Assembly (NCBI GenBank): GCA_900752335.1
Contig: CAADUZ010000007.1
Coordinates: 29,388 to 93,387 of the forward strand
Direction of reading: 5' to 3'
DNA from: Clostridia bacterium
GTDB lineage: Bacteria > Bacillota > Clostridia > TANB77 > CAG-508
Length of the DNA: 64,000 bases
The notes beneath the pieces are model-generated. The model did no database searches. It was not told where the DNA came from and saw nothing but the letters and a program-made list of their open reading frames with translations. This document shows positions 5,125 through 5,864 of the stretch, piece by piece. Position numbers and translations under genes: made by a program. The number at the start of each line of letters is the position of its first letter. The stretch's first letter is position 1.

Positions 5125-5649
5125 TTAATTGTTTTCTTCATTCCATTGTTTTAGTTTTTCTTCTAATAGTTTAAAATCAACTGTATTTTTTATATATCCA
5201 GTATCAATATTTTTATTTTTTTGACTGTATACTGTCTTTGCATACTTTATAATTTTATTAGTATTATCATGTATATATCTTAATTCTCCCAATATTAATT
5301 CTTTATATTTTAAATCTTTTTCCTCCGCTAGTATATATGGTTCTAATTCTGTTATTGGTACTGGTATCATGTTGCTTATTCTTAAAGTCCCATACAAACG
5401 TCCACCATCATGCATTCTTATTATTGTTTTAGTATCATTTCTAATCGTTTTATTTTCTATATCTATGTAATCTGACTTTTTAGGAGATGACATTGGAATA
5501 TAATAATTAAACTCATTTACAGTTAATACAATTCCTAGATACTTTCTTCCATGACTTCTATCTTCTTCTTTATTATCATAAATTTTACTATCAAATTGTC
5601 TTAAATATTTTATGTATTTATCACTTATACTATATAAATTTAGTTTCAT
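5125..5649 (-). CDS. toxN: Type III toxin-antitoxin toxin, ToxN/AbiQ-family endoribonuclease
   Basis: 174 aa. Blocks align with Pectobacterium ToxN as I recall it: YSISDKYIKYLRQFDSKI, YLGIVLTVNEFNYYIPMSSPKK, NMIPV, DFKLLEEK. RBS GAGAGGAGAA. Directly preceded by tandem repeats and a terminator. Confidence 0.85.
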   Translation of the reverse strand: MKLNLYSISDKYIKYLRQFDSKIYDNKEEDRSHGRKYLGIVLTVNEFNYYIPMSSPKKSDYIDIENKTIRNDTKTIIRMHDGGRLYGTLRISNMIPVPITELEPYILAEEKDLKYKELILGELRYIHDNTNKIIKYAKTVYSQKNKNIDTGYIKNTVDFKLLEEKLKQWNEENN

Positions 5650-5669
5650 TTATTCTCCTCTCATAAAAT

Positions 5670-5702
5670 AAGAGAAGTATATCGCTTTGGATACCTTCTC
5701 TT
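5670..5702 (-). terminator. Intrinsic terminator between the antitoxin repeats and toxN
   Basis: Minus-strand RNA AAGAGAAGGUAUCCAAAGCGAUAUACUUCUCUU followed by AUUUUAU, placed as in ToxIN. Confidence 0.6.
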
Positions 5703-5827
5703 GATTTTAACTTTCTCAATTATAAGGCTGTGAAACACCCGATTTATAACTTTCTCGATTATAAGGTTGTGAAACACCCGATTTATAACTTTCTCAATTA
5801 TAAGGCTGTGAAACACCACGATTTTCT
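5703..5827 (-). ncRNA. toxI: ToxI-like antitoxin RNA: three head-to-tail 39-nt repeats plus a partial unit
   Basis: Units at 5711-5749, 5750-5788 and 5789-5827, read on + as CTTTCTC(A/G)ATTATAAGG(C/T)TGTGAAACACCCGATTTATAA. Period is exactly 39 nt with no spacers. They lie immediately upstream of toxN on the same strand. Confidence 0.8.
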
Positions 5828-5834
5828 TATATCT

Positions 5835-5864
5835 ATTATACTATCTGTATGTCTTGGCTGTCAA
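5835..5864 (-). promoter_or_regulatory. Sigma-A-type promoter driving toxI-toxN
   Basis: Minus strand TTGACA (5864-5859), 18-nt spacer, TATAAT (5840-5835). The predicted start site falls at the first repeat. Confidence 0.6.

Follow-up and report, generated by a model that had tools for sequence, protein, structure and literature searches.

Within a 64,000-nucleotide (nt) stretch of a Clostridia bacterium contig (CAADUZ010000007.1, positions 29,388 to 93,387, assembly GCA_900752335.1; hereafter the window), a compact locus lies wholly on the minus strand and comprises, in order, a promoter, three repeats, a hairpin with a U-tract, a ribosome-binding site (RBS) and an open reading frame (ORF) of 174 amino acids (aa) (Table 1). 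The first-pass annotation of this DNA had recognised here the promoter-repeats-terminator-toxin layout of ToxIN and AbiQ, which are toxin-antitoxin (TA) systems of type III. Each element named there lies at the coordinates given or a few bases away. That layout is now backed by matches of the protein to family models and to solved structures, by its Ser-Pro-Lys-Lys motif and by recurrence of the module in 18 other genomes. With a probability of about 0.85, we read the locus as a complete chromosomal type III TA module of the ToxIN/AbiQ family, and as a typical member of that family.

Table 1. Features of the toxIN-like locus, in window coordinates.
Feature	Position	Strand	Basis or remarks
-35 hexamer TTGACA	5859..5864	-	part of a 12/12 consensus match with an 18-nt spacer
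-10 hexamer TATAAT	5835..5840	-	same 12/12 promoter; conserved in relatives
Putative antitoxin unit 1, 40 nt, AUCG-UGGU-G-UUUCACA-GCCU-UAUAAUU-GAGAAA-GUUAUAA	5783..5822	-	bounded by AAA/AUC
Putative antitoxin unit 2, 39 nt	5744..5782	-	proposed stem 1, 5779..5776 with 5767..5764; proposed stem 2, 5774..5769 with 5756..5751
Putative antitoxin unit 3, 38 nt, 3' end GUUAAA before the last boundary	5706..5743	-	AAA/AUC phasing
Closing boundary AAAAUC, fourth predicted toxin cleavage site (AA^AUC)	5703..5708	-	motif match
Predicted intrinsic terminator/attenuator: bulged hairpin (5702..5670) and U-rich tract (5669..5663)	5663..5702	-	folding
RBS AGGAG	5656..5660	-	five bases 5' of the ATG at 5649; read from the sequence
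toxN/abiQ-family toxin gene, 174 aa, predicted endoribonuclease	5125..5649	-	family models; sequence matches to solved structures
Spurious 52-aa ORF (translated repeats)	5661..5819	-	GTG start inside unit 1, without RBS
Spurious 76-aa ORF (translated repeats)	5730..5960	+	opposite strand of the array

The promoter, previously described as near-consensus, is a perfect match: TTGACA-18-TATAAT at 5864..5835 is the sole 12/12 sigma-70-type site that our promoter scan returned in 4600-7400, where each of the other 16 candidates reached 9/12. The same module occurs in 18 other assemblies, all from uncultured Clostridia and with toxins 75-85% identical to that of the window; 18/18 of these relatives carry a TTGACA/TATAAT promoter together with a hairpin, and TTGAC(A/G), a spacing of 17-18 nt and TATAAT are kept throughout. 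From the usual spacing, transcription would be expected to start near 5828, with a leader of ~6 nt before the first unit boundary. The promoter scan found no site comparable to the 12/12 one between the repeats and toxN, and, as the layout of type III systems requires, the one predicted promoter 5' of the repeats would drive both the array and toxN. Upstream, a terminator scan found no terminator-like site between the stop codon of the neighbouring 397-aa gene (5922) and the promoter, in agreement with the first-pass annotation. The RBS proposed ahead of the 174-aa ORF is likewise present, and GGAG occupies its position in nearly all relatives.

Tandem Repeats Finder (TRF) described the array as a repeat of period 39 with 3.1 copies and 92% matches (5703-5824), and an independent repeat finder returned three 39-nt copies with start-to-start spacings of 39 and 39 and identities of 92% and 87%. 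Three head-to-tail 39-nt repeats are thus present as had been reported and, once phased on the recurring boundary motif AAA/AUC, measure 40, 39 and 38 nt. What had been taken for a partial fourth copy is not a repeat; what remains of it is the closing AAAAUC boundary. The pentamer AAAUC stands at all four unit boundaries (5824..5820, 5784..5780, 5745..5741 and 5707..5703), is conserved in relatives, and includes AA^AU, the site cut by the ToxN enzymes of Pectobacterium and E. coli; known ToxN enzymes cleave AA^AU, GAA^AU or AAA^AA (PMC8860590). By analogy, the toxin would cleave the array transcript into units at AA^AUC. The array ends 57 nt from the ATG of toxN on the same strand, and short tandem direct repeats lying upstream of the gene for the toxin, inside the published range for the family, are what a type III locus should have.

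Among the relatives, TRF found repeats of 37-41 nt in 2.2-3.1 copies at 17/18 loci, the remaining one (L012) holding a single unit, and three units with four predicted cleavage sites are the modal arrangement in the clade of 19 loci (16/19). The exact sequence of unit 3 of the window recurs in 8/19 of them. More distant loci that we fetched, with toxins 36-70% identical, have repeats that follow the same plan.

The hairpin between the repeats and toxN folds strongly (dG -12.7 kcal/mol, z -5.2, with 0/200 shuffles as good), and UUAUUUUAU follows it directly, bearing out the terminator-like hairpin reported earlier at this place. It is kept in 15 relatives, with one compensatory change from an AU to a GC pair. 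A simple terminator scan did not detect it because, as folding indicates, its stem is bulged; we regard the palindrome as a predicted terminator in the position that the type III layout calls for.

The protein matches Pfam family PF13958 (ToxN_toxin) over the full profile (1-159/159), scoring 137.2 bits (E 7e-40) where the curated cut-off is 25, and the AbiQ model of PADLOC with E 3e-46. Searched against the sequences of solved structures, it aligned with AbiQ (4glk, E 7.5e-20) and with several ToxN proteins (2xd0, E 2e-17; 4ato, E 4e-16; 7d8o, E ~2e-15). ToxN_toxin and AbiQ were the only significant matches in Pfam and PADLOC, neither of which gave a significant match to CptN or TenpN; NCBIfam gave no match for the toxin, nor for the neighbouring 397-aa protein. 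Judged by these profiles, the toxin is a member of the ToxN/AbiQ protein family, as the first-pass annotation had supposed, and not a CptN or TenpN. The family is large: a search of 1.84 billion representative proteins brought out 1396 clusters (50% identity) when E was allowed to reach 1e-3, and 431 when the limit was 1e-10. NCBI's name for close relatives reads 'type III toxin-antitoxin system ToxN/AbiQ family toxin [Clostridia bacterium]'.

The sequence blocks previously lined up with Pectobacterium ToxN are among the invariant columns of our alignment, in which the two proteins are 30% identical. Residues Tyr29, Lys33, Thr52, Ser53 and Lys55 are given as the active site of that enzyme (PMC5086642), and Ser51 is named as a catalytic residue of AbiQ. 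The stretch T52-S53-P54-K55-K56 of ToxN corresponds to S54-S55-P56-K57-K58 of the window toxin and K33 to R35, a conservative replacement, so that 4/5 of the active-site positions are conserved or conservatively replaced. Against six full-length relatives, the ratio of nonsynonymous to synonymous divergence (dN/dS) of the toxin gene is 0.11-0.19 at a synonymous divergence (dS) of 0.56-0.87; the toxin is under purifying selection.

The RNA part is conserved as well. We assembled 53 units (39 distinct) from the 19 loci of the close clade; 21/43 columns of their alignment do not vary, and a further 7 reach at least 90% conservation. Since the 21 columns stay invariant despite a dS of ~0.6-0.9 in the adjacent gene, the non-coding repeats must be under strong constraint. 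RNAalifold returned a 4-bp stem 1 in which N-G-G-U pairs with R-C-C-N'. Both sides of the closing pair change (GU in 22, UA in 9, AU in 5 and others in 3 of the 39 distinct units), and the U-R pair is U-G in some units and U-A in others. In a pseudoknot model that pairs the loop UUUC with the downstream GAGAAA, 98% of the cells are paired; shifting the 3' partners by 1-3 columns brings this down to 68% or less. For a tally of stem 2 we took units sharing the loop frame GGUG-UU-N-C-R-C, defined by a regular expression, with distant lineages added: in 64 distinct units across lineages, loop position 8 and its partner form U-A in 50, C-G in 11, G-C in 1 and U-G in 2, with 0 mispairs. On this lineage tally, stem 2 of the window would comprise C9-G, U8-A, U7-A and U6-A, with C11-G and an A.A mismatch adjoining stem 1. 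The comparative evidence therefore points to a ToxI-like H-type pseudoknot with single-stranded tails as the probable fold of the unit. A long AU-rich helix (UUAUAAUU/AGUUAUAA) predicted from single-sequence minimum free energy folding was rejected, being 74.5% paired, which does not exceed shuffles, and freely variable in its 5' strand.

A unit of 39 nt is also 13 codons, and the repeats are consequently open in several frames. The first-pass annotation explained the plus-strand ORF over the array as the repeats translated; we agree, and the minus-strand ORF is of the same kind (Table 1). That the repeats instead encode a small repetitive peptide, of 52 or 76 aa, has virtually no probability in our estimate. 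Annotation pipelines do place coding sequences (CDSs) over such arrays, as on plasmid pECA1039 (L025, 972-1193), where RefSeq draws a 'hypothetical protein' CDS over the archetypal ToxI repeats, the same artefact as the repeat ORFs of the window. However, orthologous units range from 36 to 43 nt and arrays from 1 to 3 units, and thus neither a reading frame nor a peptide is conserved; the variation obeys base-pairing rules rather than codon rules; and the minus-strand ORF begins at a GTG within unit 1 that lacks an RBS.

The units of an array differ by position. In 19/19 loci the first unit, of 39-43 nt in total, is set apart by one additional nucleotide at its 5' end, by a base other than G at the first stem position and by a longer loop 2; its closing pair with position 16 is U-A or A-U in 18/19 loci, the window having a U.U mismatch; later units have a G-U closing pair, and the last unit, of 36-38 nt, always ends in GUUAAA. 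One could imagine that they are not interchangeable copies but a fixed, position-specific set, by which each transcript would supply one defined heterogeneous trio per triangular 3:3 complex, the odd first unit then being a weak link that sets how easily toxin is released from the complex. We consider this very unlikely: simple shared ancestry without repeat homogenisation fits the pattern equally well, and the existence of one- and two-unit arrays counts against a strict need for three.

Single-unit arrays, bounded by two AAAAUC/AAAAU sites and lying ~100-190 nt 5' of the toxin gene, were seen at L012, L066-L068, L073-L075 and L083; such arrays are missed by tandem-repeat finders, and repeat-based screens would therefore not call these loci type III. 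At L085, L086 and L090, the ToxI-like units are ~51 nt long and loop 2 holds an extra small hairpin (UUAGUGAAAACUAA), the core of stem 1 and stem 2 being unchanged. Elsewhere in the window, GGTGTTGCACTACC at 48884-48897 (plus strand) resembles the stem 1 core and was considered as a sign of a second module; it lies inside the gene of a 932-aa P-type ATPase (46804..49602, minus strand) and was put down to chance.

Several points weigh against reading the locus as a working module with a ToxI-like antitoxin. Covariation within the close clade is thin, with one pair only that changes on both sides, and within that clade two registers of stem 2 fit equally well; the register was settled only once distant lineages had been added through a frame defined by a regular expression. 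An automated best-register test gave 4.66 pairs against 4.43 +/- 0.07 for shuffles, a modest excess, and the unsupervised best-register search, which was noisy and failed to recover the crystal register of Pectobacterium ToxI (ToxI_Pa), was set aside. In nested-structure prediction, single units do not outperform shuffles, and neither does genuine ToxI. In the protein, the active-site Tyr29 of ToxN corresponds to Arg31 and is not conserved, in a stretch of the N-terminus that is variable in AbiQ too. The neighbours of the module are housekeeping genes rather than a defence island. The locus is known to us from its sequence, and toxicity, processing, neutralisation and phage resistance are all deductions from it; to our knowledge, moreover, a phage phenotype has not been demonstrated for every ToxIN system.

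The missing tyrosine could also be read as a sign that the locus is a decayed or silent remnant, no longer working, and some relatives have visibly decayed: at L018 (4001-4463) the toxin gene is frameshifted, with tblastn segments covering residues 1-82 and 100-172, and at L015 (4001-4462) it is cut to 154 matched residues, next to a second unit with two core substitutions (UUCC, AAUC). For the window we hold this to be very improbable, as its ORF is intact with the low dN/dS given above, its promoter is perfect, its terminator and RBS are conserved, its RNA core is near-invariant while synonymous sites have diverged, and the identical protein recurs across many independent assemblies. The module in the window is apparently functional.

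By analogy with characterised ToxIN and AbiQ systems (PMC3401426, PMC5086642, PMC8860590), and from the anatomy of the window, we infer how RNA processing, neutralisation, complex stoichiometry and a role in phage defence might be linked here. A strong constitutive promoter would produce a transcript of three tandem ToxI-like units, most copies of which would end at the hairpin while a minority would read through into toxN, so that the RNA antitoxin would be in excess over the toxin. The ToxN endoribonuclease would cleave the precursor at AA^AUC into units of ~38-40 nt, each folding as an H-type pseudoknot with a 4-bp stem 1 containing two central G-C pairs, a turn at G5, and a stem 2 formed between the loop UUUC(A)C and GAGAAA. 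Single-stranded tails at the unit's 5' and 3' ends would fill the active sites of neighbouring toxins, giving an inactive cyclic complex. Should transcription or RNA stability collapse, for example upon phage infection, the labile RNA would be lost and the freed ToxN would degrade RNA of the cell and of the phage, leading to arrested growth or abortive infection. The label 'abortive infection' attaches to the window locus through its family membership and should be read as provisional.

The genomic setting bears on this last step. Public assemblies contain the identical toxin protein in 206 blocks, and in 6/6 listed places the gene lies between the 397-aa gene and a T-box leader with ileS, within the order ftsE/ftsX, two M23 peptidases, a ctpA-like peptidase, traX, the 397-aa gene, toxIN, ileS, a 443-aa gene, queA and tgt. 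From this constant context it follows that the module resides stably in the chromosome of one species of gut Clostridia. In the flanks of the 18 relatives, ileS is absent and the 397-aa gene is found in one exception only; the site of the module therefore differs from species to species, which is usual for small TA modules.

Such a distribution is also what a small mobile selfish module would show, and a functional type III pair might serve selfish persistence (addiction, or stabilisation of its locus) or growth arrest under stress rather than phage defence. We rate this as unlikely on balance, yet as a serious alternative. The housekeeping neighbourhood (ftsEX, M23 peptidases, ctpA, ileS, queA and tgt), with no defence island or prophage, somewhat favours it; plasmid stabilisation is reported for some type III systems in a review (PMC5086642); and our search of viral contigs found neither a phage-borne repeat mimic (pseudo-ToxI) nor a close relative of the toxin. 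On the other hand, the two best-studied members, Pectobacterium ToxIN and Lactococcus AbiQ, were both discovered as abortive-infection systems, and PADLOC places the protein under an anti-phage AbiQ model. A Fusobacterium phage also carries a relative, as would fit conflict between phage and host or between phages: phiFN37 (OR492271.1, 59629-59800) has an annotated ToxN/AbiQ-family toxin whose 3' part shows ~70% DNA identity to the window gene. DNA-level searches of plasmid and phage collections yielded nothing beyond weak matches in Fusobacterium, confined to the 3' part of the gene. Phage-defence and selfish roles are not mutually exclusive, and the reading of the locus as a ToxIN/AbiQ-family module is common to both.

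Several observations concern the surroundings of the module. L003 (3040-3767) encodes a second, divergent ToxN paralogue of 164 aa at 33% identity, placed ~230 nt upstream of its orthologous module and equipped with its own TTGACA promoter and ~2 diverged repeats of ~60 nt, so that two type III modules stand in tandem. The 397-aa gene behind which the window module sits (5922-7115, minus strand), earlier described as pilin-like/FGE, reached Pfam only below threshold, with FGE-sulfatase at E 0.028 and N_methyl at E 0.43, and matched nothing in NCBIfam or PADLOC; its length varies by strain (382, 397 or 403 aa), and a 32%-identical relative lies just 3' of the toxin at L015 (5256-5918). Between toxN and ileS (4696..1925) lies a T-box leader (4759-5042, minus strand), directly downstream of the toxin gene, with a terminator hairpin at 4748-4776; it scores 81 bits (E 1.8e-17), short of the Rfam gathering score of 93. 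As there is no terminator after toxN, read-through transcripts of toxIN would enter this leader. A promoter-like TTGCAC-17-TAATAT for ileS is found at ~5093..5064. Over the whole window, Rfam matches above gathering score were confined to four tRNA genes (19762-19834, minus; 50527-50597, plus; 52259-52329, minus; 53004-53076, plus). In 6/6 strain contigs (L019-L024, ~14146-15271, outside the window), tgt, located 3' of queA, is called as two overlapping ORFs of 306 and 83 aa, both matching PF01702, which suggests a conserved frameshift or a split gene.

The first-pass annotation had described the module as invisible to the ORF track, which holds for its RNA part, as this alone lacks annotation; the toxin ORF is in the plain ORF list and is called by public gene callers, with PF13958, in public assemblies. 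The locus illustrates how pipelines name the toxin but overlook the RNA, at times placing a false 'hypothetical protein' over the array. It leaves the understanding of type III systems unchanged, and its value is modest: a well-documented chromosomal ToxIN clade, from uncultured Clostridia abundant in the human gut, joins a family whose study has centred on plasmids of Pectobacterium, Lactococcus, Bacillus and E. coli. The comparative set, of 53 close units and the distant ones, indicates that the ToxI architecture of stem 1, G5 and stem 2 persists across toxins 30-45% identical, and it extends the range of antitoxin arrays down to a single unit.

Among known systems, ToxIN of Pectobacterium atrosepticum plasmid pECA1039 (PDB 2xd0, 2xdb, 2xdd) has the same order of parts, with repeats that begin a few bases after the -10 hexamer, and its ToxN belongs to the same Pfam family and shares T/S-S-P-K-K. 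Its 36-nt ToxI repeat, which matched pECA1039 (NC_011767.1) at 100%, was cut at AA^AU and compared with unit 2 of the window. The two share a stem 1 of 4 bp, its two central pairs being G-C, and a G5 (both among the conserved features named in the structure paper on E. coli ToxIN, PMC8860590), an 8-nt hairpin loop, a 5' tail of 3-4 nt reading AU(U)C, a 7-nt 3' tail of the form G-N-U-A-N-A-A and the AA^AU boundary. Element by element, with ToxI named first, the 5' tails are AUUC and AUC, the 5' strands of stem 1 AGGU and GGGU, the turns G and G, the remainders of the loop AUUUGCU and UUUCACA, the 3' strands of stem 1 ACCU and ACCU, the sequences of loop 2 UUAAG and UAUAAUC, the 3' strands of stem 2 UGCA and GAGAAA, and the 3' tails GCUAGAA and GUUAUAA. 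A pairwise alignment has 25 identical columns (z 3.6). Stem 2 of the window is probably the longer, with 5-6 pairs and an A.A mismatch against 4 pairs; loop 2 and stem 2 accommodate the extra 3 nt of the window unit; and in most units A-U takes the place of ToxI's U.U base pair. The arrays also differ, pECA1039 having 5.6 near-identical copies of 36 nt and the window 3.1 diverged copies of 39 nt, as do the settings, a small enterobacterial plasmid as against the chromosome of a Gram-positive anaerobe.

The first-pass annotation had proposed on the strength of 39-nt units in about 3 copies that the locus may be a distinct ToxIN subfamily whose antitoxin has its own RNA fold, and had suggested the comparison with ToxI just given. 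We now give this idea little credence. The unit is indeed 3 nt longer than Pectobacterium ToxI, its stem 2 seems longer and its loop 2 is variable in length, and the toxin is just 30-35% identical to Pectobacterium ToxN and AbiQ. Nevertheless, such identity is normal among characterised family members, and the stem 1 pattern N-G-G-U / R-C-C-N, G5, the 8-nt loop and both tails are common to ToxI and the unit, with covariation that fits a ToxI-like pseudoknot. The repeats match no Rfam family, and RF02519 (ToxI; gathering score 50 bits) in particular did not match the locus at E up to 10. As a control, this model scored Bacillus thuringiensis ToxI at 59, 47 and 40 bits and antiQ weakly at 27 bits, and missed the archetypal ToxI of pECA1039; it is too narrow even for that one, which makes the missing match uninformative about likeness to ToxI, and Rfam silence was dropped as a sign of novelty. 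The published means for the toxIN family are 38.1 nt (31-62), 2.8 copies (1.9-5.6) and 168 aa (PMC3401426, Table 2), and the window, with 39 nt, 3.1 copies and 174 aa, is close enough to them to be called average. Units of 39 nt are also found in Fusobacterium, as intermediate forms, and at other loci.

The locus thus compares with the known systems as a ToxIN/AbiQ-family module outside both other type III families. CptIN and TenpIN are alike in general logic (repeat-RNA antitoxin, terminator, endoribonuclease toxin), with CptI repeats of 40-48 nt and TenpI repeats of 39-57 nt (PMC3401426); CptI, in contrast, forms heterotetramers and has a different pseudoknot. AbiQ/antiQ of Lactococcus lactis plasmid pSRQ900 (PDB 4glk) provides the best match of the window toxin among solved structures and in PADLOC, at 35% identity. 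It has the same layout and a Firmicute host, with antiQ repeats of 35 nt in 2.9 copies, and it differs in being plasmid-borne and in its unit, which has A4.G13 in stem 1 and a stem 2 of UCCA with UGGA and aligns weakly with the window unit (z 2.5). The closest relatives with annotated records are the ToxIN loci of Fusobacterium (for example F. vincentii SB055) and of gut metagenomes, with toxins 42-44% identical; we know of no experimental characterisation of the Fusobacterium loci. Their ToxI consists of 39-nt units in 2.0 copies with the GGUG-UU-N-CAC-N-ACC core of the window and the boundary AAAUUC, and the F. vincentii unit aligns with that of the window over 28 identical columns (z 7.2). 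They differ from the window in having two units, in forming C-G or G-C in stem 2 in place of the U-A of the window, and in carrying a 1x2 internal loop rather than the 1x1 mismatch.

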